Shown piece after piece: positions 8,041-26,589 of a stretch of 35,280 nt of DNA. The stretch is from Gemmataceae bacterium. Lineage in GTDB: Bacteria; Planctomycetota; Planctomycetia; Gemmatales; Gemmataceae. The stretch lies in NCBI GenBank assembly GCA_035307785.1, contig DATGHS010000223.1:1-35280 (forward strand), in the 5' to 3' direction. Position 1 is the first letter of the stretch; the number at the start of each line of letters is the position of its first letter. The position numbers and the translations under genes are program-made. The notes below the pieces were generated by a model that was given only the letters and a program-made list of their open reading frames with translations, was not told where the DNA came from and did not search any database.

Positions 8041-8045
8041 AAACG

Positions 8046-8329: not shown

Positions 8330-9109
8330 ATGAGCATGTACTTTCGCCCGCGCACGCTCCTGCTGGCGGCTGCTGTTGGCTTGCTTTTCCCCGCTGCCAT
8401 GCAGGCGCAACAACTACGCTTCAACGAGCGCGAAGCGGCGCCCAGCCCGCATGTGCAGGACAAAGACGATATTTGGACGATAACCTTCCGCTTCAAAGAC
8501 CCGCGCATGCTGGTGGTCAACGTCCCCGGCCGCGGCCAGAAGGTGGTCTGGTACATGTGGTACCAGCTTATCAATAACGACAAGGTCCCCCACAGCGTGA
8601 TCCTGGATTTCGATCTCGTGACTCGTGACCTGGGAGAGCGGAATAGAAAACTTAGTTTCCACGATGAGATCCTGCCGGCAGTGCAGGAAGAGATTCGCAA
8701 GATCGAAGACCCGACTGATCGCTTCCATATTCAGAACACCGTCACCATTGGCCAGAAGCCGATCCCGATTAGCAAGCCCGATGCCGCCCCGCGCACGGTG
8801 ACCGGTGTGGCGATCTGGCCCGATGTGTTCGACAAAGCCCGCGACACCACGCACTTCGACATCTTTGTGAGCGGCCTGTCGAGCGGCTGGTCGATTGACG
8901 ACCAGGGGAAGATTCGCCGCAAGACCCTGCAACTGGAATTCAAGCGCCTGGGCGACGGTTCGCGTGTCGACAATAACGAAATCAAGTTTGTGGATTCGAA
9001 GTGGTTCTACCGCGAAACCACGGCCAATGTGGGTTTGCAACTGCCGCCGTCGGTGCAGCCTGAAGCCGCGCCTGCGGCGCCCCCCGCGGAACCGAAGAAG
9101 GATCAGTAG
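8330..9109 (+). CDS. Secreted hypothetical protein (ORF track starts at 7952, but the upstream part spans the palindrome and is non-coding)
   Basis: Signal peptide MSMYFRPRTLLLAAAVGLLFPAAMQAQQ at 8330. Upstream 8120-8329 is T-rich non-coding. Antisense ORF 8414-9040 has GC-junk composition. Confidence 0.55.
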   Translation: MSMYFRPRTLLLAAAVGLLFPAAMQAQQLRFNEREAAPSPHVQDKDDIWTITFRFKDPRMLVVNVPGRGQKVVWYMWYQLINNDKVPHSVILDFDLVTRDLGERNRKLSFHDEILPAVQEEIRKIEDPTDRFHIQNTVTIGQKPIPISKPDAAPRTVTGVAIWPDVFDKARDTTHFDIFVSGLSSGWSIDDQGKIRRKTLQLEFKRLGDGSRVDNNEIKFVDSKWFYRETTANVGLQLPPSVQPEAAPAAPPAEPKKDQ

Positions 9110-9483: not shown

Positions 9484-10686
9484 CTAAGCTCCATACTTCG
9501 CCAATCTCTGCGCGTGCGCTAGCGCCAGCGTCATCAAATACATGGCCTGGAACTGGCCCAACCCACCTTGCAAGCATGCGCGCTCCGTGAATTCCGTAAC
9601 CGCATCCGTGCGGGCGAATTTCGACCACAGCAATACCGGCACCGGATGCCAGCTGTGCGTCTTCAGCTTGCTCGGCGTACTGTGGTCACCGGTGACGATC
9701 AGCACATCCGGTTTCAAATTGCGAATCGCCGGTATCGCCTTGTCTAACTCTTCGATCTTCTTCACCTTCTCCGCAAAAGCGCCGTCTTCGCCGGTCTTGT
9801 CGGTGTACTTGTAGTGCAGGAAGAAGAAGGTGTATTGGTGCCAGACTCTCTTTAGCGTATCGAGCTGATCCTGGAGTGAAGTTACCGGCAGCACGTTCAT
9901 GCCGACCAAGCGGGCGAGTCCACGGTACATCGGGTAGACCGCAATTGCGGCGCACTTCAAGCCGTATACGTCCTGCATGGTCTGAATCTTGGGGTAGCGA
10001 GCGAACCCGCGCAAGGTGATGCCGTTCGTCGGCGCGTCGTTCTGCAGCACCTGGTCGGCCTTGGCCACGAATTGATTGGCCGCTTCGGCCGTCTTCTGCG
10101 ATGCCTCGTTGGCGCCATGTGCCGGGTGCGGAGCGACGCCGGTCATTTGTGGATCGGTGTCGTTCACGGCATCGCCCAGCCCGTCGCCGCGAAAGACAAG
10201 CACGAAGCGATGTTCGCTTACCGGTTCCACGAAGGTTTCGACGCCAGGGACGGTGATGCTCTTCATTTTCTGCGCCATCGCCTTACAGCATTCGGTGGTA
10301 GGCCGGCCGGCCCGGCGATCAGTGATTTTTCCGCTGGCATCGAGCGTGCAAAAGTTGCCGCGAATGGCGACGTCCTTCGGGCCAACCGCGAAATCGATGC
10401 CGAGCGCTTCGAGCACGCCGCGGCCAATGCGGTACTGAAGCGGGTCATAGCCGAACAGGCCCAGGTGCCCCGGACCACTGCCCGGCGTGATCCCGTGGAG
10501 TACCGGGATACTCAAGCCGCAGACGCCTTCTTTCGCCAGGGCATCAAGATTGGGCCGGCGGGCGGTTTCCAGCTCCGTGAGTCCGCCCGGCTCCATCGGC
10601 AAGCCGCCCAGGCCATCGGCCACCAACAGCACGATTTTGGTGCCGTTTTCCTCGTGCAATTCTTGAATGAGTGCATGAAGGTCCAT
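9484..10686 (-). CDS. apgM: Cofactor-independent phosphoglycerate mutase, archaeal-type (ApgM family)
   Basis: ORF 9484-10797. Start likely MDLHALIQEL at 10686. Motifs LLVADGLGG, metalloenzyme-superfamily VTGDHSTP. Confidence 0.8.
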   Translation of the reverse strand: MDLHALIQELHEENGTKIVLLVADGLGGLPMEPGGLTELETARRPNLDALAKEGVCGLSIPVLHGITPGSGPGHLGLFGYDPLQYRIGRGVLEALGIDFAVGPKDVAIRGNFCTLDASGKITDRRAGRPTTECCKAMAQKMKSITVPGVETFVEPVSEHRFVLVFRGDGLGDAVNDTDPQMTGVAPHPAHGANEASQKTAEAANQFVAKADQVLQNDAPTNGITLRGFARYPKIQTMQDVYGLKCAAIAVYPMYRGLARLVGMNVLPVTSLQDQLDTLKRVWHQYTFFFLHYKYTDKTGEDGAFAEKVKKIEELDKAIPAIRNLKPDVLIVTGDHSTPSKLKTHSWHPVPVLLWSKFARTDAVTEFTERACLQGGLGQFQAMYLMTLALAHAQRLAKYGA

Positions 10687-10843
10687 CGGTTCTCCTTTTG
10701 GTATTTCCGTGGTGGAGTTTACTGATCGCCAAGTGCGACGTACAGTTAACTGAAAGCCACGCTTCGGCTTTCGGAAGCCGGCCGGCATCCCGGCCAACCG
10801 GCATTCCTTCGCTCAACCATGTCCGGGAACGCGGGATATTCGC

Positions 10844-12373
10844 ATGCAATTGGCCGATGAATTGGTGGAATACAACTACCAAAACGCGCTTGCCGCTCCC
10901 GCCGACGCCTGGACGCTCCTGGCCGAGCTGCAGGCAAAGCATTGCCTGCCGCGCCCGCGGCTGGAGGCCCTGAAACGCAACCTCGATGCGGTTTGGAGCC
11001 AGGTGAAGGCGGAACGCGAGGCCGAGCCGAAGCCGGGGCAGCCGGAACTTCAGCCGGGCTTTATCGAACTGCCGCAGAAATACCTCGACAACCACCGCCG
11101 CAAAGGCGAGGCCAGCGAACTGGGCCGCATGTTGGCGCTGGCCGGCCGGCTGCAGAGCGAAGTGGACCGCGTGGTCGTTCTGGGAATTGGCGGTTCGTAT
11201 ATGGGAGCGCGCGCTTTCTTCGAAGCGCTGTGCCCGAGTTATCACAACGAACTTCCGCCCAAAGCGCGGGCCGGCAAGCCCCGGATTTATTTTGAAGGCA
11301 ATGGCTTCGACAACGACAGCATGCAGGACCTTCTCGACCTGTTCGAAAACACATGCGTGGATCCGGCTATCCGGGAAGAGCGCTGGGGCGCCATTGTCAT
11401 CAGCAAGTCGGGCGAAACGCTGGAAACCGCCGCGGCCTACCGCATCTTTCGGGCCGAAGCAATGAAGTTCTATGGCTCGCAGCCGGACAAATGGCGGCGC
11501 TATATCTTGCCGGTCACCGGCGCGAAGGGCGCCTTGCGGGACTTGGTGGAGGCCGAAGGCTATCCGGAAGGCGATGTGCTCACGATCCCAGACAATGTGG
11601 GAGGTCGCTATTCGGTATTCACGGCCGTCGGCCTTTTGCCGGCCGCCGTCATGGGGCTCGACATTCGCGCACTGCTGCTCGGCGCTGCGACGATGACCAA
11701 GCGCTTTCTGGAAGAGCCATTCGAGCGTAATCCGGTTCTCCAATTTGCGGCGGTTAATTATCTATTCAACGAAGAGTTGCACAAGCCGATCCGCGTCATG
11801 GCGGTCTGGTCGAAAAAGCTGGAGGCGCTTGGCTTCTGGTATGATCAGCTTCTGTCGGAATCGCTGGGCAAGCAAGGCCGCGGCGCCATGCCGCTCACCG
11901 CGGTAGAAACACGCGATCTGCACTCTCGTGGCCAGCAACACCAAGACGGCCCGCGCGACAAGTTCATCAATAATCTGGTCGTAAAGGCACCCAAGCACGC
12001 GCCCATTGCCATCGGCATGGCGGATCACAATGAAGACGCTTTGAATTCACTTTCTCGCAAGACTTATATCGATCTGGCTCAGGCAGCCCTCCAGGGAACC
12101 AGCCAGGCGTATGCCGAGGTCGCTCGGCCCACCGCTGATCTGATTCTGCCTGCGCTCAGCGAACATGCCCTCGGCCAGGTGATGCAGATGCTGATGCTTG
12201 CCACGGTGGTGGAAGGCCGGCTGATGGGCATGAACCCGTACGGCCAGCCCGGCGTGCAGGCATACAAGTACAAGATGCGCGAGATACTAAAGAGTAGTGA
12301 GAACAAATCGTCAGTTCCTGGGTTAAGCCCATCGAAATCGAGCGCTAATCTACGAGGAGAGTCGCCCCCATGA
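10844..12373 (+). CDS. pgi: Glucose-6-phosphate isomerase
   Basis: GIGGSYMGARA, ISKSGETLET, GGRYSVFTAVGLLP motifs of PGI. Low-complexity C-terminal tail (SSENKSSVPGLSPSKSS) is unusual. Confidence 0.88.
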   Translation: MQLADELVEYNYQNALAAPADAWTLLAELQAKHCLPRPRLEALKRNLDAVWSQVKAEREAEPKPGQPELQPGFIELPQKYLDNHRRKGEASELGRMLALAGRLQSEVDRVVVLGIGGSYMGARAFFEALCPSYHNELPPKARAGKPRIYFEGNGFDNDSMQDLLDLFENTCVDPAIREERWGAIVISKSGETLETAAAYRIFRAEAMKFYGSQPDKWRRYILPVTGAKGALRDLVEAEGYPEGDVLTIPDNVGGRYSVFTAVGLLPAAVMGLDIRALLLGAATMTKRFLEEPFERNPVLQFAAVNYLFNEELHKPIRVMAVWSKKLEALGFWYDQLLSESLGKQGRGAMPLTAVETRDLHSRGQQHQDGPRDKFINNLVVKAPKHAPIAIGMADHNEDALNSLSRKTYIDLAQAALQGTSQAYAEVARPTADLILPALSEHALGQVMQMLMLATVVEGRLMGMNPYGQPGVQAYKYKMREILKSSENKSSVPGLSPSKSSANLRGESPP

Positions 12374-12805
12374 AGGCCCTCCGAGTCTTCGAGAATGCAG
12401 GGCCCGGGACGTGGCGAACACTCTCTGTCGTCGGCTCCCCGGATCTCGTCGCGTAGTTAACCGAGCTTAAACAGGTCGTTCTGCCAGGGATCCATCCTGG
12501 CACCCTTTAACATATCCCCGCATCTTCCCACGCCAAAAACTCGCCTTTACACGCAAGTAGATTCTGTTATCCCCACCCCGCTTTCGTGGCGCACGGACTC
12601 GCAGCCGCGAATGCTCGATCACGGATGATCGCTTAGGGGAGAGGGGGGCTGGCCGGGGTGCAGTGGCCCATGCCGCGGATGCGGCAGCGCGTCTCAAGTT
12701 TGGGCCGTTGCCGATCCGCGTTGCGGGCCGCTGTACTCCGGCGCCTTTTCATTGCACGAAATCGACGTCATTTTAGTTGCTGCATGGGAATCAGGAGGAT
12801 CGCCC

Positions 12806-13357
12806 ATGTTTGCCGCCGTGCCTATTCTCGCCATCGTCTTGCTGACGGCTCCGTCAGCCGAGCCCGTGCCGGCCATCTCGGCGGAATACTGGCCGGCCTT
12901 AAAGACGGTCATGCAACAGCTGGCCTGCCAATGGCAAATACTTGATCCGCGCGAGGATCGCTTGTTGCGGCAAGAAGAATTGGCGGCCGATTTGAAGATT
13001 CTGCGCGGCCGGCATCGCGATTTGGCAGACGCACCGAATCTGTACGACTACGTCCGTTTCCCGGAAAAAGCACTGGCCGTGGATTGTCTTTCGTTCAACC
13101 GCGCCTATCGGCGCGTCATCGAAAAGCGCATCCCGCTGGAATCTGATCGGGCGGCGGCACTGAAAGAAATTCTGCGTGAGACCGATGAGCTATACAAGAT
13201 CTGGGATGCCGTACGCGATGCCCGCTGCGAAATCTATTACGTTCCGGTGCGCCGGCAGGCGCTCAAGCAACTACGCAATCTCATCGGGGCCGAAGCTTAT
13301 TACAGCGGCCAACTCCCACCGCATGTGCCGCTGTGGAGGTTTGAGGAGATCAAATAA
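12806..13357 (+). CDS. Secreted hypothetical protein
   Basis: AGGAGG (12794-12799) 6 nt upstream of ATG 12806. Signal peptide MFAAVPILAIVLLTAPSAEP. ORF track begins at 12752. Confidence 0.55.
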   Translation: MFAAVPILAIVLLTAPSAEPVPAISAEYWPALKTVMQQLACQWQILDPREDRLLRQEELAADLKILRGRHRDLADAPNLYDYVRFPEKALAVDCLSFNRAYRRVIEKRIPLESDRAAALKEILRETDELYKIWDAVRDARCEIYYVPVRRQALKQLRNLIGAEAYYSGQLPPHVPLWRFEEIK

Positions 13358-13424
13358 GTTTGTAGTGACCCGCTTTAGCGTGTCACCGCCTTGGGAGGAC
13401 CGCCTGAACGCGGTCACTACAAAC
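13358..13424. terminator. Bidirectional terminator-like 15-bp inverted repeat between convergent genes
   Basis: GTTTGTAGTGACCCGC (13358-13373) pairs with GCGGTCACTACAAAC (13410-13424). Lies exactly between stop 13357 (+) and stop 13429 (-). Confidence 0.5.
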
Positions 13425-13428
13425 CAAT

Positions 13429-13734
13429 TCAGATATCAATCTGCACTTCGTCGCCGACAATCTGCACTGGAAATGTCTGCACTCCCGAACTCGCCGGTGG
13501 GCAGCGATGGCTGCCGGTGGCCAGATCAAATCGGGCCGCGTGCCAAGGACAGGTCACTTCGCCGTTGGCGCAGGTTCCTTCATGCAACGGGGCACCGCGA
13601 TGGGTACACGTATCAGCGATGGCGAATACTTTCCCATCGACGTTGAACAGCGCAATCTTACGGCCGGCGACGTCGACTTGCCTCCCCTTACCGGGATGGA
13701 TTTCAGATAGCAATGCAACTTTGGTAAACGCCAT
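13429..13734 (-). CDS. Rieske-type [2Fe-2S] domain protein (NirD-like small Rieske ferredoxin)
   Basis: CTHRGAPLHEG ... CPWHAARFDLATG gives the CxH...CxxH Rieske ligands. 101 aa. Confidence 0.8.
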   Translation of the reverse strand: MAFTKVALLSEIHPGKGRQVDVAGRKIALFNVDGKVFAIADTCTHRGAPLHEGTCANGEVTCPWHAARFDLATGSHRCPPASSGVQTFPVQIVGDEVQIDI

Positions 13735-13777
13735 AACGATTCTCTTGGCGATTGAGGTCCGAAAACAATCGTGCCGG

Positions 13778-14263
13778 CTATTTCAGGATCTTCACTTCCA
13801 GGATGCCGTCGCGGCAGGAGTGCGTGACTTTCTCCGGCACCGGTGCGAACGGTAAGACGACTTCCTTCATGTACTTGCGCGAACCTTTTTCGGCGCTGAT
13901 TTTGAGCGTTTCACCAACCAATTCCACCTTTACATCTTCGCTGGCCACGCCAGGCATGTCGGCCACAATGCGAATCTGCTCGGCCTCTTCCACGATTTCA
14001 GTGCCGGAGGCATCGCCGGTCGGCGTGCCTGGGCGCCTAGCCGGATTGCCGATTTCGATGGTCAGGGCGGGCCGCTCCAGATCCGCCTTCACGGTGAGGC
14101 TATATATGCCGTGTAGGCCCGTGCCCTCCGGGAAGACGCCTTTGCGCACCCGCTGCACGCCGCTTTCGGCCAGCTGCTGCACGGAATTGACGACATGATG
14201 CAGATTCGACAGCAAGCCCTTGAGGGCTTCGTCGGACGTTGGTTTCATTGGTTCTGAAGACAT
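13778..14263 (-). CDS. Hsp20/alpha-crystallin family small heat-shock protein
   Basis: IVADMPGVASEDVKVELVGETLKISAEK...EVVLPF...DGILEVKILK is the classic ACD pattern. Confidence 0.85.
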   Translation of the reverse strand: MSSEPMKPTSDEALKGLLSNLHHVVNSVQQLAESGVQRVRKGVFPEGTGLHGIYSLTVKADLERPALTIEIGNPARRPGTPTGDASGTEIVEEAEQIRIVADMPGVASEDVKVELVGETLKISAEKGSRKYMKEVVLPFAPVPEKVTHSCRDGILEVKILK

Positions 14264-14311: not shown

Positions 14312-17300
14312 TTAACCGGATTTGCGGGCCATGCGCGAGGCGCTCAATAGCCCATTATGCGAAGAATAGGCCAGTTTGGAAGCGGGCGGGTAGGCCACGG
14401 CATTCAACTTGCCGCAATCGCTTTGAAGCGTGAGTTGCGGTTCGCCGTTTTCGAGCTTCCAAATGCGCACCGTACCATCCCAGCTACAGGAGGCAAGTTG
14501 CTTGCCGCTTGGAGAAAGCGACAGGCAGCGAATCGATTCGCGATGTCCGCTGAGCGTTTGAATTTCGCGACCGGAGGCCAAATCCCAGCGCTTGATGGTG
14601 GTGTCCCAGCTTGCCGAAAAGAGTGTCTGACCATCGGGGGCAAAGAGGACCGAGCTGACCGCCAGGCCATGACCCGTCATCGCGAGCAGTTCTTCGCCGG
14701 CGGCCTGATCCCAGAGTCGTGCGGTCTTGTCCCAACTGGCGGATGCCAATGTCAGCCCATTCGGCGCAAAGGCAAGCGAAGTCACCATCTTTTCGTGGCC
14801 GGAACAAACGGCGCGGGCGCGGCCGGTTGCCAAGTCCCAGAGCCGGATCGTGCGGTCCCAGCTTCCGGAGGCCAGCACTTTGCCGGATGGATGGAATGCC
14901 AGCGAAGTGACGGCCCCCTTGTGGCCGGTGAGCGTCGCACGTTCGGCCTTGTGCTCTATGTCCCAAAGCTTGATGGTCGAATCCCAGCTGGCCGAAGCAA
15001 GAGTCTGGCCGTCGGGAGCGAATGCCACGCTGGTCACTTCGCCAGTATGGCCGGGAAGCACGACTAAGAGTTCGCCGGACGCGATGTCCCAAATGCGAAC
15101 GGTCTGATCGGCGCTGCCGCTTGCCAGGAATAGGCCATCCGGGGAGAAGGCGAGCGAGTTCACGTCCCGGGTGTGCCCCTTCAACTGGCTCAGCTGCTTG
15201 CCAATCTCGGCATTCCAAAGGGAAACTACCTGATCATTGCCCGCCACAGCCAGCACGGTAGCGCGCGTCGACACCGGCACATTCCTCACGTCGCGCGAAA
15301 CGAGCGGCACGACATGCGTTTCCGACACGCTGCCGCCTGGCGGCATGTCTTCCGTAGGGACCATGTCGTTGAAGCGGGGGATCGGCCTGGCCGGAGTCAG
15401 TTCTAAATCCGAAACGGAAGGTGCGGTGGTCGCACTGCCTGTGGCTTCCTCAGCCGTCGCGCGCGGTCTTCCAGAATTCGCTTCCCAGAAGTAGATGATT
15501 CCATTTGCCCCGGCGGCAGCCACGGTCTTCCCGTCCGGGCTAAATGTCACAGCCGCAATATCGGTTGGAAGACCGGTCCATTCGAAGCGCGATTTGCCGG
15601 TGATCGAATGCCAAAGCTTGACCGAGCGATCGGCACCGGCAGAGGCCAACAACGAACCGGTGCCGGAAAACGCTACAGCCATGACCGGTCCTTTGTGGGC
15701 ATCGATATCCACCCATTCGGCGCCCGTGGCCACGTCCCACAATTTCAGCTGTCCATCGACGCCGCCGGTGGCGACGGCTTGACCTTCCGGCGACATCGCC
15801 AGGCAGCGAATTTCCCGGCCATGCGCGGCAATATGATGCTTCTCGCGCCAATTGGCAAGGTCGAAGATCCGCAACATGCCCATCCCGTCGCCCGTCGCCA
15901 GGCTCTTCCCTTCTTGCGCCGCCGCAATAGCGCGCACCGCAGAATCGTGGCCCAAGAGCGATCGGCGAAGTTGTCTTGTCTGCAAATCCCAGACTTTCAC
16001 CGAGCCGTCTTCGCTGCTGGTAATCAACACCTGTCCATCGGGCGGGAATGCCAGGCCGGTAACAGGCCCGCCGTGGCCCGGTAAGGCCATCATGTCCTGG
16101 CCATTGGTATTCTCCCAAAGGCAAACTTTGCCCGCGCTATCGGCGCTGGCCACGAGCCGGCCATCGAATGGAAATCCAACGGCTGTAACTTCGCTGCCGT
16201 GGCCCTGCAAGCGCGAGAGGATTTCCCCGCTGGCGGCATCCCAGAGAAGCACTTCATTGCCGGAGCCCGACGCCAGAAATTGACCATCGGGTGAATAGGT
16301 TAACGCCTTGATCGGCTTACTGGCAATTCTCGAAAGCACCGATGGTTGCGACGGCTTCGCCTGTAGCTTGCTGGACTTCGGGTCTAACTTCGGGACCGCT
16401 GACTTGCTCAACGCCGGCGCCGATTTTCTATCGGCAGCCAAACCGGGCATCTTCGAGGCAGGCAGGGCTGCCGGCGCCAAAGGCAGCGCGGGGCTGCTTG
16501 CCTTGGCTGGCGCGCTTGCCGCCGGTAGTTGCAGGTTCGCCTTCGATTCCGATTGTGGTAGGCCGGAGGGCTTCTCTTCACCGAGTTGAACCGCGATGTT
16601 ATTCAGCTGCCGGCCCGTGCCCAGGTCCCAAGTCTTGACCGTGTGATCGAGGCTGCACGAGGCCAGCCCGTGGCAATCCGGGGAAAAGGCGATCGACGTG
16701 ACCACGCCGCCGTGGCCTTGCAAGGTCGCGCGCAACTCGCCGCTTTCCGCGCTCCAGAGCTTGACCGTGCGATCCCAGCTGGCCGTCGCGAGATATCGTC
16801 CATCGCGGGAGAAGGCAACGGCGGTCACCTCGCCGCCATGTCCGCGCAACGTGGCGCGTTCCTTCCTGGTTTCCACGTCCCAGAGCCGAATGCTGTGATC
16901 AAGACTGCCGGACGCCAGAGTTTTCCCTTCCCGCGAGAAGGCGACGGAGGTAACGTCACCGTTGTGGCCTTTGAGAACTGCCGCGGTCTTGCCCGTGTTC
17001 ACGTCCCATAAGCGCACCGTTTTGTCCCAGCTGCCGCTGGCCAGCAGCAAGCCACTGGGTGCATAAGCTACCGAGGTGACCATCTGCTCGTGCCCCTCGA
17101 GGGCCCTTAATTCGGCGCGGTCTTTTAAATCCCACAGCCGGACGGTCTTGTCCCAGCCACAGCTGGCCAACCGCGACCCGTCGGGCGAAAACGCCAGCGC
17201 CGTAACTACGCCCGTGTGGCCTTTAAGCGTGGTCACCGCATCGCCGTCGGGAAGCCGCCACAGTCGCACGGTCTTGTCCCAACTGGCACTGGCGAGCGTG

Positions 17301-18607
17301 AGGCCGTCGTCGGCAAAAAGAACGCAACTCACCACCCCGCCGTGGCCGCTCAGCGTGAGCAATTCGTTGCCGCTGGCCGCATCCCACAATTTAATTGTTT
17401 TATCCCAGCTCGCCGTAGCTAGCGCTTTACCGTCGGCCGAAAACGACAACGAAGTGATGTCTCCAGAGTGGCTCGAACTGCTGACAATTCTTGGACGCGA
17501 GGCAGCCTGCTCCGCCACCAGCTCCCAGTCAAAGCGGCTGGCCTTCGGGTTTGGAAGGTCCTGGTCGTGTACCAAATCCAGCGCCGGAGGATCTGCTAGA
17601 GCTCCGCCGTCTTGTACCGCTGGCGGTATCGACTCGCCGGCTGGCAAGCCGGTTGCGACTACAACAGGCACAATCGACGTCTGCCCCTCGCGTGGAGGCG
17701 GCACGGTCTTCGGCGGGGTTACCGGAGGCGCTGGTGGCTGGGCCGGCTCCTCTTTTTGCCAAGGCTCTATTGGCGGCTTGGAGCCACCCGCATCAAAGTC
17801 GACTTCACTGCTGAGCTCGGCTGCCGGGGCCACCGAGTCGGACGGAGTAAACAGATTCACTTGTTGTTTTTGCAGAACGGTGGCCATGCCCAGCCATTGG
17901 GCGAGCGTGTGATATTGCACCGCGGCTGGTGATTGGGGGTTCATCGCGATCACCGCCTTGCCGGCCAGCAGCGCTTTCGGCACCTCTGCGTCATAGGGAA
18001 TGGTTTGCGGCAGAATATAACGGCCAAAGATATGCCGGAGATCCACGTCGAAGCCACGGCCCGCAGTCTCGCCCGGTGGCATGGTGAGGAGGATGCCGCG
18101 CATCTGCACCGCGCTTCCTTGCGACTGCATGGCCTTGATGAGCTGGAGAAACATCGGCAATGTCCGGTACGACATGGGCTCGGCCCGGATGATCAGCATC
18201 AAATTGTCGCTGAAGAAAATGAGCTTGCGGAGCAAGTCACCGGTGACGATGGGCGGCGAATCGATGACCAGCCAGCCGTAGCGCTGCGATGACGGGTGCC
18301 GCGACACCGTCTTGAGAAAATCGTCCATCGGCTGCGTGAAGGCAGCGCCGTCACTAGCCGGTTGGATCACGTCGAGGCCGGGGACAACGTTGCGCCAAAC
18401 CACGCCGTCGGCCGCGATGCCCAGTTCGCGAAGCTGCGCTTTATCGGCATGGAGGTGTAAATTGAGTGACGCGGCAACACTTCCCAAGGGATCGGTATCG
18501 ACCAACAAGACCGGAATGCCTGACAGAGCCGCGGCGGTGGACAGATTAATAGCCGTCGTGGTCTTTCCGACGCCGCCTTTCTGGCTGGCGATCAACAATT
18601 TTCGCAC
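14312..18607 (-). CDS. Giant ParA/MinD-family ATPase fused to three WD40 beta-propellers (ORF extends to 18748; GTG 18607 after GGGGAGG avoids a 100-nt overlap with the upstream gene)
   Basis: N-terminal deviant Walker A LLIASQKGGVGKTTTAINL, Walker B WLVIDSPP. Pro-rich linker, then three blocks of ~7 WD40 repeats (GH..V.S.AFSPDG..LAS.S.D.T..LWD) separated by Ala/Pro/Ser/Lys-rich linkers. 1431-1478 aa. Confidence 0.8.
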   Translation of the reverse strand: MRKLLIASQKGGVGKTTTAINLSTAAALSGIPVLLVDTDPLGSVAASLNLHLHADKAQLRELGIAADGVVWRNVVPGLDVIQPASDGAAFTQPMDDFLKTVSRHPSSQRYGWLVIDSPPIVTGDLLRKLIFFSDNLMLIIRAEPMSYRTLPMFLQLIKAMQSQGSAVQMRGILLTMPPGETAGRGFDVDLRHIFGRYILPQTIPYDAEVPKALLAGKAVIAMNPQSPAAVQYHTLAQWLGMATVLQKQQVNLFTPSDSVAPAAELSSEVDFDAGGSKPPIEPWQKEEPAQPPAPPVTPPKTVPPPREGQTSIVPVVVATGLPAGESIPPAVQDGGALADPPALDLVHDQDLPNPKASRFDWELVAEQAASRPRIVSSSSHSGDITSLSFSADGKALATASWDKTIKLWDAASGNELLTLSGHGGVVSCVLFADDGLTLASASWDKTVRLWRLPDGDAVTTLKGHTGVVTALAFSPDGSRLASCGWDKTVRLWDLKDRAELRALEGHEQMVTSVAYAPSGLLLASGSWDKTVRLWDVNTGKTAAVLKGHNGDVTSVAFSREGKTLASGSLDHSIRLWDVETRKERATLRGHGGEVTAVAFSRDGRYLATASWDRTVKLWSAESGELRATLQGHGGVVTSIAFSPDCHGLASCSLDHTVKTWDLGTGRQLNNIAVQLGEEKPSGLPQSESKANLQLPAASAPAKASSPALPLAPAALPASKMPGLAADRKSAPALSKSAVPKLDPKSSKLQAKPSQPSVLSRIASKPIKALTYSPDGQFLASGSGNEVLLWDAASGEILSRLQGHGSEVTAVGFPFDGRLVASADSAGKVCLWENTNGQDMMALPGHGGPVTGLAFPPDGQVLITSSEDGSVKVWDLQTRQLRRSLLGHDSAVRAIAAAQEGKSLATGDGMGMLRIFDLANWREKHHIAAHGREIRCLAMSPEGQAVATGGVDGQLKLWDVATGAEWVDIDAHKGPVMAVAFSGTGSLLASAGADRSVKLWHSITGKSRFEWTGLPTDIAAVTFSPDGKTVAAAGANGIIYFWEANSGRPRATAEEATGSATTAPSVSDLELTPARPIPRFNDMVPTEDMPPGGSVSETHVVPLVSRDVRNVPVSTRATVLAVAGNDQVVSLWNAEIGKQLSQLKGHTRDVNSLAFSPDGLFLASGSADQTVRIWDIASGELLVVLPGHTGEVTSVAFAPDGQTLASASWDSTIKLWDIEHKAERATLTGHKGAVTSLAFHPSGKVLASGSWDRTIRLWDLATGRARAVCSGHEKMVTSLAFAPNGLTLASASWDKTARLWDQAAGEELLAMTGHGLAVSSVLFAPDGQTLFSASWDTTIKRWDLASGREIQTLSGHRESIRCLSLSPSGKQLASCSWDGTVRIWKLENGEPQLTLQSDCGKLNAVAYPPASKLAYSSHNGLLSASRMARKSG

Positions 18608-18648: not shown

Positions 18649-19302
18649 TCAGCGTTTCAACAGTGAGTCGTTCAAATTGCGGGCCAATGTACCAAATGCC
18701 GCGGAAGCCACACCTTGAGGAGGCGGGACCCCGGCCTTGAGCGCCCATTCGCGCATTTCCTGCTGCAAAGGAATGACCGGGCTCAGTAGCAATTCGCGAT
18801 GTCCTTCTTGTAACCGGCTAAGCACAGCGCGTTGCACTTCATCCTGGGCATCATAAATGCCGACTAGCAATCCCAATAATTCGAGCCGGCGATTGGCTTC
18901 TCGCGCCTTGCCAATTATCATTGCCGCGGCCGGCACCGTACGAATGGACAGCGGGTCTGCCAAGCTGGTGAGAATAATGCCGTCCGCCGCGCTCAGCACT
19001 CGCTGTGACAACGGATCAAGCAGCGACGGACTATCCACAATCACAATCTGAGTCTGGTGCGGGCCGGCAAGTGCTTCCAGACCGGTCTGAAATTGCACGT
19101 TCGGCCACGGGCACTGGCCGGCCGAATTCAGCGCCACCATGCTCATGGAACGCATCGGTACCGCGTCCACAAGCGTGACCGAGTGGCCCGCCTGACCCAA
19201 ATGCCAGCCCAGGCATAGCGCCGTAGTCGTCCGCCCGGTACCGCCCTTGTGGCTGACGATTCCCAAAATGTAGGGCGACCTCGCCAATGATTTCTCCTTC
19301 AC
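18649..19302 (-). CDS. ParA/MinD-family P-loop paralog with Walker A Lys-to-Arg (SHKGGTGRTTT)
   Basis: 217 aa. ILGIVSHKGGTGRTTTALCLG: signature first Lys present, GK[ST] Lys encoded as CGG (Arg) at 19231-19233 (checked in DNA). Walker B-like QIVIVDSPS. Confidence 0.7.
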   Translation of the reverse strand: MKEKSLARSPYILGIVSHKGGTGRTTTALCLGWHLGQAGHSVTLVDAVPMRSMSMVALNSAGQCPWPNVQFQTGLEALAGPHQTQIVIVDSPSLLDPLSQRVLSAADGIILTSLADPLSIRTVPAAAMIIGKAREANRRLELLGLLVGIYDAQDEVQRAVLSRLQEGHRELLLSPVIPLQQEMREWALKAGVPPPQGVASAAFGTLARNLNDSLLKR

Positions 19303-19537
19303 CGGCTCTTCGCCGAATGCTTGCTCTTGGAACCACGCCCGGCCATCACGTTGATCGGTGTGTCACATTCCTCAGCCGGGGCATGCAATGCCACGTACGA
19401 GTTGGCCAGGAATGGCCGCAACAGCGCAAGAACCTGATTCATCTGCTCACTTTCGGCTTCCAACCATTTCGGATCGAGGGTATCCACGACAATCAGGCTC
19501 CACGGGCGACCTTAAAGGAATGGTTTCGTGGATCGTC

Positions 19538-20296
19538 TCACACACGTGTCTGTTCCAGTGCTGCCAGCACGTCGGCATGATTTTTGCGCCCATGCCCGGC
19601 GAGCGGTTGGAGCCGCTCCGGAACCGTAATGACAAACCGGCTGCGGTCAGCGCCGCAGCTGAAGCAATCCGTTTGCAAGCAATCGAGTTCGGTCCCGGAG
19701 AAGACCGAAAACATGCCGCTCAGAAAGCCGGCCAACAGGGTCTCCACCGGTTGGCCGCCTTGCCGAACGCTTGCCCCCAGCATCGGTGTTTCCACTTCGA
19801 CGGTCAACAAGCCGCGGTCATAGCGGCTGAAACCAAATTGGAAGGTGCCCCAGCCATGATGCTCAAACGCCTGGGCGAGATTGGCACTGAACATAGCCAT
19901 CGGCAAATCCAGCAGCGCTTTGCCGAAATGCTGCTGCATTTGCGCCGCAAATTGTTCCGCTGCCTTGCGGCCCCATTCCCGGCCCGTCGCTTTCAGCACC
20001 GGCAACGCCCGATCCCCCATCTGCCCCTCCAACGAATTGCAGAAAGCGAGCAGGAAATCGTCGGTGAGGGCCAGCATGCGCACGCCGGCCCGATTCTGCA
20101 TCGTGCCCTTGCGCAGATCGTGCTCGATATAGCCGGGCTCGCCGAAGTAGTTGCCCTTCAGCAGCAGGCCTTCTGTATTGGCTTCCATTTCAAGCTCTTG
20201 TTGGTCTTGCCGCCACAAATCCATGTTCGGAGCCGGGGTCGCAAACGGCCGGATTGAGCGCCGTCTCCCATCCGGTCGCTTGCGCTCTCGGCTCAT
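19538..20296 (-). CDS. V4R (4-vinyl reductase / Bet3-like) domain protein (alternative start M at 20224)
   Basis: C-terminal ETLLAGFLSGMFSVFSGTELDCLQTDCFSCGADRSRFVI matches the V4R consensus (G.L.G......G..v.v.E..C...G...C.F.I). Confidence 0.5.
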   Translation of the reverse strand: MSRERKRPDGRRRSIRPFATPAPNMDLWRQDQQELEMEANTEGLLLKGNYFGEPGYIEHDLRKGTMQNRAGVRMLALTDDFLLAFCNSLEGQMGDRALPVLKATGREWGRKAAEQFAAQMQQHFGKALLDLPMAMFSANLAQAFEHHGWGTFQFGFSRYDRGLLTVEVETPMLGASVRQGGQPVETLLAGFLSGMFSVFSGTELDCLQTDCFSCGADRSRFVITVPERLQPLAGHGRKNHADVLAALEQTRV

Positions 20297-20315: not shown

Positions 20316-20852
20316 TTACGCACTCGTCGCCGCGGGTTCCGGCAGTTCGCTCAAGACTTCAATATTTCGGTCCAAATACGGTTGCAAAAGGGCCGCGGTT
20401 TGCGGGCTGGTATGCTTGGCCACTTGATCGCGCAAGAGCGTGAAGCAATCGCGGCTAAACTTCGGGCTGAAGTTGCCGGCCGCTAAAACTGTGCGCAGCC
20501 AGAACAAGACTTTTTCATCCAGCCAGCGCATGTGGTCGAGAATCATTGCCTGCACATTGAAGCGCAGCACCAATTGTACGTCGTTCTGCGTTTTGGCCAG
20601 CGCCGGGCCCTTTATCGCCGACGATTCCGGATAGCGCTGCTGCATCGCTTCGATCACTGCTTGAACGATGACGTCCTCATGCTCCTGCACCTGATCGGCC
20701 GCTTGAAAGCGCGCGGGCAGCGAGGCGGCTTGGGTCAGCAGCGCCCGTCGTTCATCGGCGTGGAAATAGCGCCCTTCGGCGCCACGGACGAGACTTTGCA
20801 ACTGCGAGTTCATGGGCGAACCTTTCTTCCAACCAGCCTTCCGGCGTGTCAT
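20316..20852 (-). CDS. Phycobilisome-like (globin-fold, PF00502-like) protein lacking the bilin-attachment Cys
   Basis: Aligns along its length to phycocyanin alpha: LVRGAEGRYF~AADTQGRFL, AMQQRYPESS~AVYQKFPYTT, WLDEKVL~PMDEYLI, AAGNFSP~STFDLSP, C-terminal L..YLD..I..L. Cys of the CARD chromophore site is absent. Confidence 0.5.
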   Translation of the reverse strand: MTRRKAGWKKGSPMNSQLQSLVRGAEGRYFHADERRALLTQAASLPARFQAADQVQEHEDVIVQAVIEAMQQRYPESSAIKGPALAKTQNDVQLVLRFNVQAMILDHMRWLDEKVLFWLRTVLAAGNFSPKFSRDCFTLLRDQVAKHTSPQTAALLQPYLDRNIEVLSELPEPAATSA

Positions 20853-21806
20853 TCATTCCCAGGCGGCCAGCGCCATCACCGTCGCCACCGTCCAGGCCGC
20901 ACCGCCGGTCGGCCCATAGCCGAAGAGAGGGACACCCTTGGCCAATGTGATCGTTTCCTTTTCGAGACCAGCGAGCGGATCGCGAATGGGATGGCGAACC
21001 TGATCCGGCCGGTTGCGCCAGTTCATCAGAGTAAAGTATCCCGCGGTCGTTACATTTCCCAGCGGAATAAGATCGGCTGTCGGCACATTCGGTTGTGTGA
21101 CGGGCTTGGACAGAGCAACCGGGATCGGGGCGGGCTTTTTTTCCTCCCGGGTGTTCCGCCAGTTGTACTTTTGCAAAAAGGAACTGGCCGGCTCGAGGGC
21201 CAACTCGGGTGGCGGCGCCGGCTTTTCCACTGCCTGCATTTCCGCTTCGTCCGCGGCGAGCGCGAAATGAACCGGCACCACAGGCGTAATGGGTACCTTG
21301 GGCATTTCCACTTTTGTCGGCGAAGCCACGGGCGGCTCTTCTTTGGCGGGAGAAATTGCAGGCAGTTGCAATTCGGCTTTGGATGGTGAAATAGCGGGTA
21401 GCTGTAGCTCTGCTTTCGATGATGATACGGGAGGCAGCTTCAACTCTGCCTTGGATTGCGACGCGGTAATCCGTTGAAGTTCCGCCCTGGAGAACGAAAC
21501 GGTAGGCGGCAACTTGGTTTCAGGATCGGACGGTCTGGCCGGCATCGCCGGCGGCACGGGCAACGGCAAGGGCGCGATCGGCACTTGCGCCGCGGCCGGC
21601 AGCGCATCCAGGTCCACGTCTTCCAGTGCGAGGCCAGGGGAATCGAATATCGGATGCGATGCTTCCAGCCCCGGTGACTGCGGAACAAACCCTGCGGCCA
21701 AGGGTTGGTTTTCGTCGGGCGGCAAGGGCGGCATCAATTCGGCCAATAACTCTGCGATCTTGGCCCGCTCCGGAATTTCCCTGCCGTTCATATTGCTGCC
21801 AGCCAT
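20853..21806 (-). CDS. Proline-rich protein with four 12-aa tandem repeats (S[KR]AELQLPAISP) and hydrophobic C-terminus
   Basis: AAGGGG RBS-like 5 nt upstream of ATG 21806. Stop overlaps or abuts downstream gene start (20852/20853). Repeats encoded by ~36-nt units at 21348-21491. Confidence 0.55.
   Translation of the reverse strand: MAGSNMNGREIPERAKIAELLAELMPPLPPDENQPLAAGFVPQSPGLEASHPIFDSPGLALEDVDLDALPAAAQVPIAPLPLPVPPAMPARPSDPETKLPPTVSFSRAELQRITASQSKAELKLPPVSSSKAELQLPAISPSKAELQLPAISPAKEEPPVASPTKVEMPKVPITPVVPVHFALAADEAEMQAVEKPAPPPELALEPASSFLQKYNWRNTREEKKPAPIPVALSKPVTQPNVPTADLIPLGNVTTAGYFTLMNWRNRPDQVRHPIRDPLAGLEKETITLAKGVPLFGYGPTGGAAWTVATVMALAAWE
21348..21491 (-). repeat. Four imperfect ~36-nt tandem repeats encoding the 12-aa units of the Pro-rich protein
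   Basis: Encoded SRAELQRITASQ / SKAELKLPPVSS / SKAELQLPAISP / SKAELQLPAISP. Nucleotide units such as ggcagttgcaattcggctttggatggtgaaatagcg and ggtagctgtagctctgctttcgatgatgatacggga. Confidence 0.5.
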
Positions 21807-23274: not shown

Positions 23275-26200
23275 ATGCACCGGGAGTTACGAACGACGAA
23301 CGAGGCGTTTCAACCGCCGAAGATGGCCGGGCTCTGCCTGTTCACCGGCTTGCTGCTCTTTCTCGTTGGCCGCGACTTGTGGCCTGATTTGGCCTCTTTC
23401 CTCGGCCGCCAGGGGCTTGACCTGCCCACCGGCTCGCGCGAACTCTTCGGCTTCCGCTATGCCCTTTATGCCGCGGTGATTGGCGGCGCCCGGGTACTTT
23501 ACGGTTCACTCGAAAGCCTGTTCGAAGGAAAGCTCGGGGCCGATCTGGCGCTGGCGGTCGCCTGTATTGCCGCCATTCTTATCGGCGAACCGCTGGTTGC
23601 AGCGGAAGTCGTCCTCATCGGCCTGATTGGCGAGTGTCTGGAAGGCTTCACGTTTGCCCGCACGCAAAACGCCATACGCAAGCTGGCCGAACTTTTCCCC
23701 ATTCGTTGCTGGGTGGTGCGCGACGGACAGGAAATGCGCATGTTCGTAAGCGACGTCGTGGTGGGCGATGTCGTCGTCGTAAAGCCAGGGGCCAAGGTGC
23801 CGGTCGACGGCAACGTGCGCGACGGCCGCTCGGCTGTGGATGTGAGCGCGCTGACCGGCGAAAGCTTGCCGGTGGATAAAGGGCCGGGCGACGAAGTCTT
23901 GGCGGGTAGTTTGAACCAGAATGGCGCCTTAACGATTGAAGCAAAGCGCGTGCAGGAACAAACGGTCGCCGGCCGGGTGCTGGAACTCACCGCGAAGGCA
24001 CTGAAGGAAAAAGCTCCGGTAGCGCGGCACGCTGACCGGTTGGCGAAGTACTTTCTCCCAGCCGTGCTGGCCCTCGCCGCCGTGACCTTCATGGCGAATC
24101 TGCTCTGGTACGCGGGTCCCTTCCGCGGGGAAGCGGTGCGCTTGACGCTGGGCCAGGCGGCGCGGCTCAGCATGTACCCGGCCCTGGCGGTACTGGTGGT
24201 CGCATGCCCGTGCGCATTGATTCTCGCCACTCCGGCAGCGGTTATTGCCGCGCTCGGCCGCCTTGCGGGCACCGGGGTCCTGCTGAAAAGTGGGGCCGCG
24301 CTGGAGCGCCTGGCTGGGGTCACGAGTTTTGCCTTCGACAAGACTGGCACCCTAACGGAGGGCAAGCTCGAACTTGGCGATATTCTGCCGGTCGATAGCA
24401 CCACTCCACCGGAACAACTCTTGCGCCGGGCCGCCAACGCGGAACTGCCAAGCGAGCATCCGCTGGCTCGCGTGCTGGTGCAGGAAGCGCAGCGGCGATC
24501 ACTCGTGCTTGATCCGGTCGAGGAATTCATTGCCCATCCGGGAGCCGGCGTGCGAACGCGGGTTGGCGGCAAAACGCTGCTCGTCGGTACACCGCGGTTG
24601 CTGCAGGAGCAAGGCCTGTCGCCCGGCACCGAAGTGCGCGCACTGCTCGAGCGCCTCGAAAACGATGGCCAAACGCCATTGCTCATTGCCGCCGACGGCC
24701 GCATTCTCGGCGCCATTGGAGCGCGCGACCGTATTCGACCGGAAGCTCGCGGCATTATCGTGGAATTACGCGAATTGGGTATACAGGACATCTCGCTGCT
24801 GACCGGCGACCGGAACGCTGTGGCCGTGAAAGTCGCCTCGGACCTTGGCATCGAATCTGTGCATGCCGAATTGTTGCCGGCCGACAAGGCAAAGCTGGTT
24901 ACCGCCCAAGCGGACACGGAAGCAGCACAGTCGGTTGCCTTTGTTGGCGACGGCGTGAACGATGCGCCGGCACTGGCCAGCGCCACCGTTGGCCTGGCGG
25001 TCGGCGGCGGAGCCGAGATTGCTGCCGAGGCGGGCGACGTCGTGCTGATGGGCGATCCGCTGGCGCCGTTGCCGCTTCTGGTGCGCCTATCGCGGCAAAC
25101 GGTTCACATCATTCGGCAAAACATCGTCATCTTCGCGTTTGGCGTAAACATTGTCGGCATTGTCCTCACCGGCTGGCTCTGGCCGCTGCTTGCGCGCTCG
25201 CCGGAATGGTACGAACGCGCTCCGCTGGCCGGCGTGATCTACCATCAGCTCGGCTCGCTGCTCGTGCTACTGAATTCCATGCGGCTCCTGGCCTTTGAAC
25301 GCAAGAGCGTAAAGGCATCCTCCGGCCGGGTACGCAGCGCTCTACAGCAGCTTGATGTCTGGGTCGAGCGGGCCAGCAATGCGGATGAATGGCTGCACGA
25401 GCTTTCGCATCGCTGGAAGCCGATCGCGCTCGGCATCAGTCTCATCGGCGTTGCTGCCTACGCCGCGAGCGGCCTCACGCAAGTGGAGCCGAACGAAATT
25501 GCCGTGGTGCGGCGCTTTGGCCGGCCGCTTGAAGAGGATCTCGGCCCCGGCCTGCACTGGCGCTGGCCGTGGCCGGTGGAAACCGTGCTGAAGACACAGC
25601 CGGATCAAGTGCGCAGCGTGGAAGTGGGCTTTCGGGTGTTGAAAGATCGTCTGGCGAAAACAGAGGGTCAACAGACACGGGCCGCACTCACCTGGCTCAG
25701 CCAGCACGAAAGCGAAGGCGTGCTCCGGATCGAAGGCGAAGCCGTCATGCCCACCGGCGACGGCAACCTGATCGAACTCTTGGCCACGCTGCAATACCGC
25801 CTCCGCTCACCCCGACGCTATTTGCTGGAAGTGAATAATCCGGACGAAATTCTGCGCGCGAATTTGGAAGCGGCGTTGCGCGAACAGGCGGCCGGCGAAT
25901 CGTTTCTGGAATTGCTCACGCTGCGCCGGGCGGAGTTTCAGCGCGAGGTGTTCGCCCGCTTGCAGAAGCGCTTGCAATCCTACGGCGACCCGGGTCTTGG
26001 CATTGTCTTGGAAGGTCTTGCGCTGCGCGACCTGCACCCGCCGGCCCCGGTAGTGCCGTCGTTCCACGACGTGGCCAAAGCCGCCGAGGGGCACGACCAG
26101 ATGATAAAGGAAGCTGAGGCCGAGGCGCTGCGCATTCGCCGTGACGCCGAGAGCAAAGGGAAGGAAATCGAACGCCAAGCCGAAGCCGCCGCGCATCGCA

Positions 26201-26589
26201 CCGTGGAAATGGCGAAGAAAGACCGCGACGCCTTTCTGGCCTGGTACAGGCTGCGAACCGAACTCAGCCCGGCCGTCGAATCGCGGCTGGCAACGGAAAC
26301 GGTCGGTCTGATCCTGGCCGGGCAAGACGTAACCAGCGCCCTGGCCGACCATCAGCGCCGCCGGCAACAGCAACTGGAGAATCAGGCTTTCCTGGTTGAT
26401 TTCCGGCTGACGTGGATGGCCCTGGGCGAAACGCTCTCGCAGCGCGACAAGGTGTTCATCGATGCCGACAAACTCCCAGGCCGCCGCACGCTGCTGCTCT
26501 TCGGTCCGGACCAACTCACACCGCCGCCCATTATCCTTCCAAGCCGCATGCCAGGGCGAGGGCCGGGTGTGGAGGGGGAGGAACGCTAA
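23275..26589 (+). CDS. P1B-type (CPC) heavy-metal-translocating P-type ATPase fused in frame to a C-terminal HflK/SPFH (band-7) domain
   Basis: P1B ATPase motifs TGESLPVDK, CPCALILATPAA, FDKTGTLTEG, VGDGVNDAPALA. No N-terminal HMA/CxxC domain. After the last ATPase helices comes a TM helix PIALGISLIGVAAYAA, then the SPFH domain EPNEIAVVRRFGRPLEEDLGPGLHWRWPWPVETV, then an HflK-like coiled-coil tail (AEAEALRIRRDAESKGKEIERQAEAAA). Confidence 0.8.
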   Translation: MHRELRTTNEAFQPPKMAGLCLFTGLLLFLVGRDLWPDLASFLGRQGLDLPTGSRELFGFRYALYAAVIGGARVLYGSLESLFEGKLGADLALAVACIAAILIGEPLVAAEVVLIGLIGECLEGFTFARTQNAIRKLAELFPIRCWVVRDGQEMRMFVSDVVVGDVVVVKPGAKVPVDGNVRDGRSAVDVSALTGESLPVDKGPGDEVLAGSLNQNGALTIEAKRVQEQTVAGRVLELTAKALKEKAPVARHADRLAKYFLPAVLALAAVTFMANLLWYAGPFRGEAVRLTLGQAARLSMYPALAVLVVACPCALILATPAAVIAALGRLAGTGVLLKSGAALERLAGVTSFAFDKTGTLTEGKLELGDILPVDSTTPPEQLLRRAANAELPSEHPLARVLVQEAQRRSLVLDPVEEFIAHPGAGVRTRVGGKTLLVGTPRLLQEQGLSPGTEVRALLERLENDGQTPLLIAADGRILGAIGARDRIRPEARGIIVELRELGIQDISLLTGDRNAVAVKVASDLGIESVHAELLPADKAKLVTAQADTEAAQSVAFVGDGVNDAPALASATVGLAVGGGAEIAAEAGDVVLMGDPLAPLPLLVRLSRQTVHIIRQNIVIFAFGVNIVGIVLTGWLWPLLARSPEWYERAPLAGVIYHQLGSLLVLLNSMRLLAFERKSVKASSGRVRSALQQLDVWVERASNADEWLHELSHRWKPIALGISLIGVAAYAASGLTQVEPNEIAVVRRFGRPLEEDLGPGLHWRWPWPVETVLKTQPDQVRSVEVGFRVLKDRLAKTEGQQTRAALTWLSQHESEGVLRIEGEAVMPTGDGNLIELLATLQYRLRSPRRYLLEVNNPDEILRANLEAALREQAAGESFLELLTLRRAEFQREVFARLQKRLQSYGDPGLGIVLEGLALRDLHPPAPVVPSFHDVAKAAEGHDQMIKEAEAEALRIRRDAESKGKEIERQAEAAAHRTVEMAKKDRDAFLAWYRLRTELSPAVESRLATETVGLILAGQDVTSALADHQRRRQQQLENQAFLVDFRLTWMALGETLSQRDKVFIDADKLPGRRTLLLFGPDQLTPPPIILPSRMPGRGPGVEGEER

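Follow-up and report, generated by a model that had tools for sequence, protein, structure and literature searches.

An arginine-type ParA-like protein encoded beside a canonical ParA in bilin-globin gene clusters of Planctomycetota

The stretch of DNA analysed here (the window; 35,280 nucleotides, contig DATGHS010000223.1 of a Gemmataceae bacterium) carries on its minus strand, at 18649-19302, a gene for a P-loop protein of the ParA/MinD fold with an arginine in its P-loop. We call the product of this gene ParR, and the canonical-lysine ParA encoded next to it ParK. The ParR open reading frame (ORF) covers 217 amino acids from a GTG at 19302; the true start is probably the TTG at 19287, which stands six bases after an AAGGAG (AAGGAG-N6-TTG) and yields a protein of 212 amino acids, the form that NCBI itself annotates as "ParA family protein" (P0001). 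An initial annotation of this DNA had called ParR a ParA/MinD paralog, and the class assignment stands. Two Pfam families, CbiA (35.4 bits, cut-off 25.4) and AAA_31 (33.8 bits, cut-off 27), match above their gathering scores, so that the profile search does place the protein among ParA-like families, and the AlphaFold2 model, built on an alignment of 69 homologues (predicted local distance difference test, pLDDT, 93.4; predicted template modelling score 0.91), has a Soj-like fold. The best structural matches of this model are Soj, other ParAs, ParF, McdA, MinD and BcsQ, the first PDB match in Foldseek being Soj (2bek, template modelling score on the query 0.82, E = 3e-13). Soj is the top PDB match by sequence too: HMMER aligns ParR residues 13-52 with residues 9-48 of Thermus Soj, and R24 therefore corresponds to the Walker A lysine K20 of Soj, K19 to its signature lysine K15 and V48 to its catalytic D44. 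Asp46 of the Walker A' motif and Asp90 of the Walker B motif are present, and the second Walker A' aspartate is replaced by Val48 in the window copy. Judged by sequence and model, ParR is a genuine ParA/MinD-class P-loop protein, predicted from its class to bind nucleotide.

The deviant Walker A of ParR, S17-H-K-G-G-T-G-R-T-T26 (19225-19254, minus strand), was recognised from the sequence and from its alignment to K15 and K20 of Soj. The minus-strand codons ATC GTC AGC CAC AAG GGC GGT ACC GGG CGG ACG ACT read I V S H K G G T G R T T, with Arg24 (CGG, 19231-19233) occupying the position of the cis-acting Walker A lysine and the signature Lys19, which acts in trans, retained; as had been pointed out before, the arginine codon CGG lies two substitutions away from AAG. 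A homologue search over 5.8 billion proteins returned 73 homologues of 42-100% identity, 72 of them full-length and one a fragment of 149 amino acids. Arginine stands at position 24 in 72 of the 72 full-length proteins, whose P-loops all read KGGTGR[TS][TAS] with the exception of one KGGTSRTT. Since five different arginine codons are used over the 36 non-identical DNA copies (CGC 14, CGG 12, CGA 6, CGT 3, AGA 1), it is the arginine residue that is conserved rather than the DNA sequence. In the family alignment (69-72 homologues), which has a mean column identity of 57% and many invariant positions, H18, K19, G20, G21, T22, R24 and D46 are invariant, and the Mg-binding T25 (97%), D90 (99%) and T26 nearly so. 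The lysine-to-arginine change is thus as genuine as the initial annotation had held, the first signature lysine being kept in all 72 proteins, and no orthologue carries lysine at position 24. This pattern indicates that selection maintains Arg24 across a planctomycete clade of ParA-like proteins.

The arginine extends beyond the closest homologues. Among 1.84 billion cluster representatives, a profile search picked out 67 relatives with E < 1e-30, in which position 24 is mostly Arg, with a few Gln, Thr and Asn and a small group with Lys; past about E = 1e-28, the listed matches with a readable P-loop have the normal lysine, save for a few short fragments of the Arg type. In a neighbour-joining tree, rough and without support values, all Arg-type sequences fall into one group, within which the exceptions are nested.

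A second active-site position is altered in the window copy. Its Walker A'/switch I motif, D46-A47-V48 (19159-19167, minus strand), has Val48 (GTA, 19159-19161) where Soj has the water-activating Asp44, while the Walker B aspartate Asp90 (IVIVDSP, 19033-19035, minus strand) is an Asp in 71 of the 72 homologues. At position 48 the 72 homologues have Asp in 69 cases, Glu in two and Val in the window copy only; one of the two glutamates belongs to the nearest relative (P0002, 90% identical), and its codon is one nucleotide away from Val. The Soj chain aligned here (2bek_A) has Ala at the counterpart of position 48; it is an Asp-to-Ala mutant, which Leonard and colleagues are said to have described in 2005 as hydrolysis-deficient. 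Across the wider clade, 12 of 40 Arg-type representatives have a residue other than Asp at position 48 (N, A, S, E or V), and the multi-domain forms of ParR described below have N or R there. Asp is thus found in 70% of the Arg-type representatives versus 82% of the Lys-type comparators, a depletion so mild that it can be taken as a hint only. One relative combines both kinds of change (P0089, locus L034, 52-714): it has Thr24 in HKGGSGTTT, as BcsQ does, and Val48 in LDAVPL, as in the window, and a gene for a WD40 protein comes after it. Because Val48 replaces the water-activating Asp in addition to Arg24, the window copy of ParR is probably hydrolysis-dead.

ParR lies directly upstream of ParK, which in the window is a ParA-WD40 fusion (ParK-WD40, 14312-18607, minus strand) composed of a ParA domain with the canonical SQKGGVGKTT (approximately 17798-18607), a proline-rich linker and WD40 beta-propellers (Pfam WD40, 18 repeats). 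Its real start is most likely the GTG at 18607, preceded by a GGGGAGG (GGGGAGG-N8-GTG). With this start the two genes are separated by 41 nucleotides, and the adjacency reported earlier is borne out; the longest ORF would imply an overlap of 100 nucleotides. The other sense of the word paralog, a recent copy of the neighbour, does not hold: ParR and ParK are approximately 25-30% identical and belong to separate clades, and we therefore rejected a recent tandem duplication of ParK as the origin of ParR.

From public contigs and a scan of one genome per species we gathered 28 further distinct ParR loci, whose hosts are Gemmataceae, Gemmatales, Fimbriiglobus, other Planctomycetota and the cultured Saltatorellus ferox Poly30. 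Arg-type ParR is a clade spread over the Planctomycetota and no one-off of the window genome. Six records (L005, L007, L012, L021, L022, L023) are titled "uncultured Alcaligenaceae" at source; these titles are probably taxonomic mislabels of the metagenome-assembled genomes (MAGs) concerned, since the source of one protein (P0073) assigns the same contig to Gemmataceae. ParK follows directly after ParR, with or without the WD40 fusion, at every one of the 27 distinct loci whose downstream sequence exceeds 400 nucleotides (27/27). The gap between the genes is 29-140 nucleotides for single-domain ParR, and the two genes overlap in L005.

In the window, ParR and ParK belong to an array of nine co-directional genes on the minus strand (eight of them named), running from 21806 to 13429 with gaps of at most 50 nucleotides, in the order proline-rich protein, BBAG-type globin, V4R protein, a 62-amino-acid ORF, ParR, ParK-WD40, HSP20 protein and Rieske protein. 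The first gene (20853-21806) encodes a proline-rich repeat protein of 317 amino acids, which contains near-perfect internal repeats (SKAELKLPPVSS / SKAELQLPAISP) in about three copies; only its C-terminal approximately 80 amino acids are conserved elsewhere, between V4R-A and BBAG in L002, L004, L006 and L008. It is followed by a phycobiliprotein-like globin of the BBAG type (20316-20852; Pfam Phycobilisome, 1.9e-17) and a V4R-domain protein (19538-20296; Pfam V4R) that tblastn relates to the V4R-B proteins of the other loci, that is, the clade-B type of the bilin cluster. Downstream of ParK-WD40 lie an HSP20-domain protein (13778-14263; Pfam HSP20), found in the same place in L002, L003 and L004, and a Rieske [2Fe-2S] protein (13429-13734; Pfam Rieske, 3.5e-21), the last gene of the array. 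A scan for terminators and promoters gave counts at chance level, with no hit of either kind, and so no terminator-like site, between ParR and ParK.

The same surroundings recur in the other genomes. In 22 of the 25 loci with enough upstream sequence, the 5 kb ahead of ParR contain a BBAG-type globin with V4R genes on either side, ParR thus usually standing at the distal end of the cluster. The globin often has a heme oxygenase and a ferredoxin ahead of it and a bilin reductase and Ser/Thr kinases alongside; L035 holds a complete bilin cluster. By its gene content, this upstream set is identified as the pre-PcyA/BBAG cluster of Rockwell et al. (2023), which has been reported in Planctomycetes among other phyla (PMC10151467; follow-up of 2026, PMC13446030) and with which it shares the heme oxygenase, an Fe-S protein, two V4R proteins, the phycobiliprotein-like globin and the bilin reductase. 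The ParR-ParK pair, the WD40 fusion and the HSP20 gene, by contrast, are additions seen in the Planctomycetota loci examined, and ParA-like ATPases are not mentioned in the main texts of either paper (PMC10151467; PMC13446030). Through its conserved co-directional linkage to BBAG and V4R, ParR is a candidate accessory gene of this cluster. The cluster of the window itself is partial: V4R-A, heme oxygenase, the ferredoxin-dependent bilin reductase and a Fer2/ferredoxin gene are absent from the whole 35 kb, and the Rieske gene ends the array instead.

Between the V4R gene and ParR, a small ORF of 62 amino acids (MDTLDPKWLEAESEQMNQVL...; 19299-19487, minus strand) ends in a stop codon that overlaps the GTG of ParR (GTGA). 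Related ORFs of 50-64 amino acids lie directly upstream of ParR in L002 (9843-9995), L004 (9803-9997), L006, L008 and L014, and an N-terminal motif is common to them (LDPK-x-hydrophobic-x-x-E-x-x-R-M-x-x-V-L). Their product is possibly a small partner protein of ParR, to judge from sequence and position. In size and in place upstream of ParR, the small ORF recalls BcsR upstream of BcsQ, and in Pfam and PADLOC comparisons no relation to BcsR was detected. In many loci (L004, L005, L007, L011, L013, L015, L018-L021, L023, L024, L027 and L029), the protein encoded just upstream of ParR ends in a conserved aromatic tail of the form F/W-x-W-[ED]-stop or F-x-W-stop, such as FKWE, FNWE, FHWE, YKWE or FEW; the loci with ParR polyproteins have RWQ-x-stop instead. 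This tail may be a docking peptide for ParR.

ParR also occurs in larger architectures. Three MAGs of non-Gemmataceae planctomycetes encode ParR polyproteins of approximately 1,160-1,200 amino acids (L025, 9200-12799; L028, 1917-5546; L030, 8039-11977), in which three SHKGGTGR domains are accompanied by a fourth whose P-loop is fully degenerate and by a C-terminal, TPR-like region. Saltatorellus ferox Poly30 (NZ_CP036434.1; L026, 8120-11818), the only cultured carrier that turned up, has three ParR domains, keeps the motif in the last only and likewise ends in a TPR-like region. Right after every multi-domain ParR, ParK is encoded as a separate gene. Further variants are a Ser/Thr kinase fused to a ParR domain with ARGGGGRTT (P0102, 508 amino acids), two ParR proteins with long C-terminal extensions (P0098, L035 8001-9434; P0114, 1260 amino acids), one of which has paired CxxC motifs, and a 5'-truncated gene call in which no stop separates the C-terminal part of ParR from ParK (P0103, 508 amino acids).

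With respect to known families, no NCBIfam model gives ParR a score that reaches its curated cut-off, and membership in the BcsQ, ParA_partition, MinD, VirC1, Mrp and KGGVGR families was rejected on this ground. The ParA family partition ATPase model (NF041546) gives 52.4 bits against a cut-off of 180, and the BcsQ models match over the P-loop region only (TIGR03371, 37.4 bits against 157.85; PF06564, 19.1 against 21.3). Two other families of MinD/ParA-like domains, the "KGGVGR-motif variant AAA ATPase" (NF047398) and the "SCO2523 family variant P-loop protein" (NF040564), have the same lysine-to-arginine change in a P-loop that in ParR reads KGGTGR. The match of ParR to NF047398, however, is confined to the P-loop (27 bits against 90, residues 12-47), whereas a genuine member from Streptomyces sp. 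(L033) scores 143.5 and has neither the bilin cluster nor a ParK partner in its context. In that protein (9920-14032, 1370 amino acids) the motif SHKGGTGRT lies within the N-terminal NF047398 domain, the remainder appearing NB-ARC/TPR-like by eye. The same motif is present in a SCO2523-like protein of 289 amino acids from an Acidimicrobiia MAG (L032, 9992-10861), which falls below the cut-offs of both NF047398 and the SCO2523 family. Since SHKGGTGRT is found in these unrelated proteins, the lysine-to-arginine P-loop recurs across phyla. A literature search on KGGVGR, KGGTGR, KGGxGR and SCO2523 found nothing relevant. Curators have thus already noticed this type of P-loop in other MinD-like families, and by its profile scores ParR belongs to neither of them. 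An anti-phage defence system was likewise considered and rejected, the PADLOC matches being a 22-bit hit to the P-loop of ParR and a hit to the WD repeats of ParK-WD40.

ParR shares with Soj/ParA, ParF, McdA and MinD the fold (template modelling scores of 0.71-0.84 on the query) and a deviant Walker A with signature lysine, Walker A' and Walker B, and it has the size of the small ParF-type proteins. It differs from them in missing the cis lysine and in its sub-cut-off NCBIfam scores; moreover, the ParR locus has no ParB, MinE or McdB homologue nearby and has instead a second ParA, WD40 propellers, HSP20 and the bilin cluster. A 2024 review of ParA/MinD cargos lists none from planctomycetes or from bilin clusters. 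Close parallels come from engineered proteins. P1 ParA K122R binds ATP, dimerises and binds DNA, and it stays bound to ParB, which is unable to trigger hydrolysis; McdA K15R becomes locked on the carboxysomes, its cargo. Both mutants still bind ATP, dimerise and bind their matrix, and both have lost the hydrolysis that a partner would stimulate (PMC8684754). These two cases support the view, taken in the initial annotation, that lysine-to-arginine mutants bind nucleotide and hydrolyse it poorly. As in ParR, the cis-acting Walker A lysine is replaced by arginine and the signature lysine is kept, the rest of the site being intact in the mutants; the difference is that these are laboratory mutations, dominant-negative and poisonous to a cycling system, whereas the arginine of ParR is the wild type of a clade and ParR is accompanied by a separate, lysine-bearing ParA. 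A natural parallel is BcsQ, which is without both lysines and the catalytic Asp, is constitutively present as an ATP-bound sandwich dimer, has weak ATPase activity and serves as an assembly factor; BcsR, of approximately 7 kDa, stabilises it, and both proteins are essential for cellulose secretion (PMC7840130). BcsQ resembles ParR in being a naturally occurring member of the ParA/MinD class whose P-loop is degenerate; its water-activating Asp is replaced, and the window ParR has lost this Asp as well. The degeneration differs, since in BcsQ (RGGVGTTT) Arg takes the signature position and Thr the cis position, which in ParR hold Lys and Arg, and no second canonical ATPase is reported for BcsQ (PMC7840130), whereas ParR has ParK.

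Two other features of the window lie outside the array. At 4415-5443 (minus strand) it encodes a MoxR ATPase of the "MoxR-vWA-beta-propeller ternary system" type (PF20030, 7.8e-58), next to three proteins without a Pfam match; this neighbourhood also takes in the ORFs at 5667-9109 and 7-1410 (both plus strand), with a WD40 propeller protein at the edge of the window. At 23275-26589 (plus strand) there is a P-type (E1-E2) ATPase of 1104 amino acids with a C-terminal SPFH/Band-7 domain, an unusual fusion.

How might an arginine-type ParA work next to a canonical one? We lean, with moderate confidence, towards ParR being an arginine-locked, ATP-bound dimer that acts as an adaptor or scaffold beside a cycling ParK in the service of the bilin-globin cluster. 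ParR would bind Mg-ATP and close into a sandwich dimer like other members of its family; the residues that both steps require, namely the signature lysine, the GG pair, Thr25, Asp46 and Asp90, are all kept, and the ATP-bound dimer is expected to be long-lived. With arginine in place of lysine, hydrolysis would be very slow or nil, even under stimulation by a partner, and from this the role of a long-lived, nucleotide-dependent adaptor or scaffold, and not of a cycling motor, would follow: a natural counterpart of the "ATP-trap" mutants ParA K122R and McdA K15R, similar in function to BcsQ. ParK would provide the hydrolysing, dynamic activity, its WD40 propellers would make the contacts to cargo, and the pair would serve the products of the bilin-globin cluster. 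The hydrolysis-impaired regulatory partner or pseudo-ATPase that the initial annotation had seen in ParR is plausible by analogy with these proteins. We favour pairing of ParR with itself over pairing with ParK, because other lineages fuse three or four ParR-type domains in one chain.

Several observations weigh against such a locked ParR. The tree that unites the Arg clade has no support values, and His18 and Thr22, neither of which varies, could be compensatory. The water-activating Asp is retained in 96% of the close homologues and in 70% of the Arg-type representatives; as a long-dead site might be expected to drift more than this, slow or regulated hydrolysis may still be of consequence for ParR. 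Val48 rests on one metagenome assembly and is one nucleotide away from the Glu of the nearest relative, so that a polymorphism or an error is possible. In the window genome, finally, the link to bilin metabolism is indirect, because V4R-A, heme oxygenase, bilin reductase and ferredoxin are missing. An alternative that we consider improbable is that, with His18 and Thr22 compensating, ParR is an ordinary if slow cycling ATPase in which the arginine has little functional meaning; the finding would then shrink to an annotation note. Conservation extends to all the other catalytic residues, among them the water-activating Asp (69 of the 72 close homologues), H18 and T22 are invariant along with R24, and arginine and lysine may be interchangeable, since the small Lys subclade nests inside the Arg clade. 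This reading has to contend with the loss of partner-stimulated hydrolysis in P1 ParA and McdA upon the same substitution (PMC8684754), with the occurrence at position 24 of Gln, Thr and Asn as well, none of which is able to replace the phosphate-binding lysine, and with the repeated loss of the Asp at position 48, in the window copy among others.

A different partnership is conceivable, in which ParR and the ParA domain of ParK form one asymmetric ATP sandwich and exchange their signature lysines, the ParK site being competent and the ParR site degenerate. Comparable arrangements are the ABC heterodimers with one degenerate site and the two unequal halves of ArsA. This is essentially the idea behind the initial annotation, and we hold it to be rather unlikely. 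ParR and ParK are adjacent in 27 of 27 loci at very short distances, with an overlap in L005, both keep the signature lysine and the GG of the dimer interface, and in P0103 the C-terminal part of ParR continues into ParK without a stop. That gene call, however, is a single, 5'-truncated metagenomic one and may be a frameshift, the natural fusions join three to four ParR-type domains to each other and leave ParK separate, and an identity of only approximately 25-30% separates the two proteins. Very unlikely, in our view, is a role of ParR and ParK as cofactor-maturation NTPases in the manner of SIMIBI proteins of the CooC, Mrp/NBP35 or NifH type, which would supply the ferredoxin, Rieske or globin protein with an Fe-S centre or a bilin and have no part in positioning or scaffolding. 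It would suit the neighbouring Fer2/Rieske proteins, heme oxygenase, bilin reductase and bilin-binding globin family, as well as faint PF10609 (NUBPL/Mrp) and ArsA matches in some homologues. Yet ParR has no CxxC or bridging-Cys motif (Cys64 and Cys113 are only partly conserved, the window having Ser at position 113), and in sequence as in fold it comes closest to Soj, ParF, McdA and MinD rather than to Mrp or NifH; as a carrier of Fe-S centres it was rejected, given that the family alignment holds no Cys motif. The chance that the arginine reflects a sequencing error, a strain mutation or a decaying pseudogene is practically negligible. The window is a single metagenome-assembled contig and D48V is private to its copy, but Arg24 itself is found in 72 of 72 homologues from independent assemblies and in five codons, on which grounds a sequencing error or strain-specific mutation was rejected, and the intact ORF, the model confidence (pLDDT 93.4) and the mean column identity of 57% speak against decay.

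Cycling ATPases of the ParA/MinD family depend on the Walker A lysine, and in the laboratory such proteins are routinely frozen in the ATP state by exchanging it for arginine. A clade in which the "frozen" residue is fixed and a normal ParA is its constant companion would offer a natural experiment on the division of labour between locked and cycling ATPases. The ParR-ParK module also extends the heterotrophic bilin/BBAG clusters, which have been proposed as the origin of phycocyanobilin synthesis and of the phycobiliproteins. As ParA-type proteins, WD40 scaffolds, HSP20 and Ser/Thr kinases adjoin the cluster, its bilin-globin proteins seem to be part of an organised, possibly positioned, complex. 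A bolder proposal, which we put forward as a speculation and hold to be doubtful, is that ParR and ParK constitute an undescribed two-ATPase module, one ATP-locked and the other a cycling WD40-ParA, that assembles, anchors or positions a BBAG/V4R complex in non-photosynthetic planctomycetes. If true, this would give the ParA/MinD family a new class of cargo and would provide a cell-biological handle on the ancestors of the phycobiliproteins.

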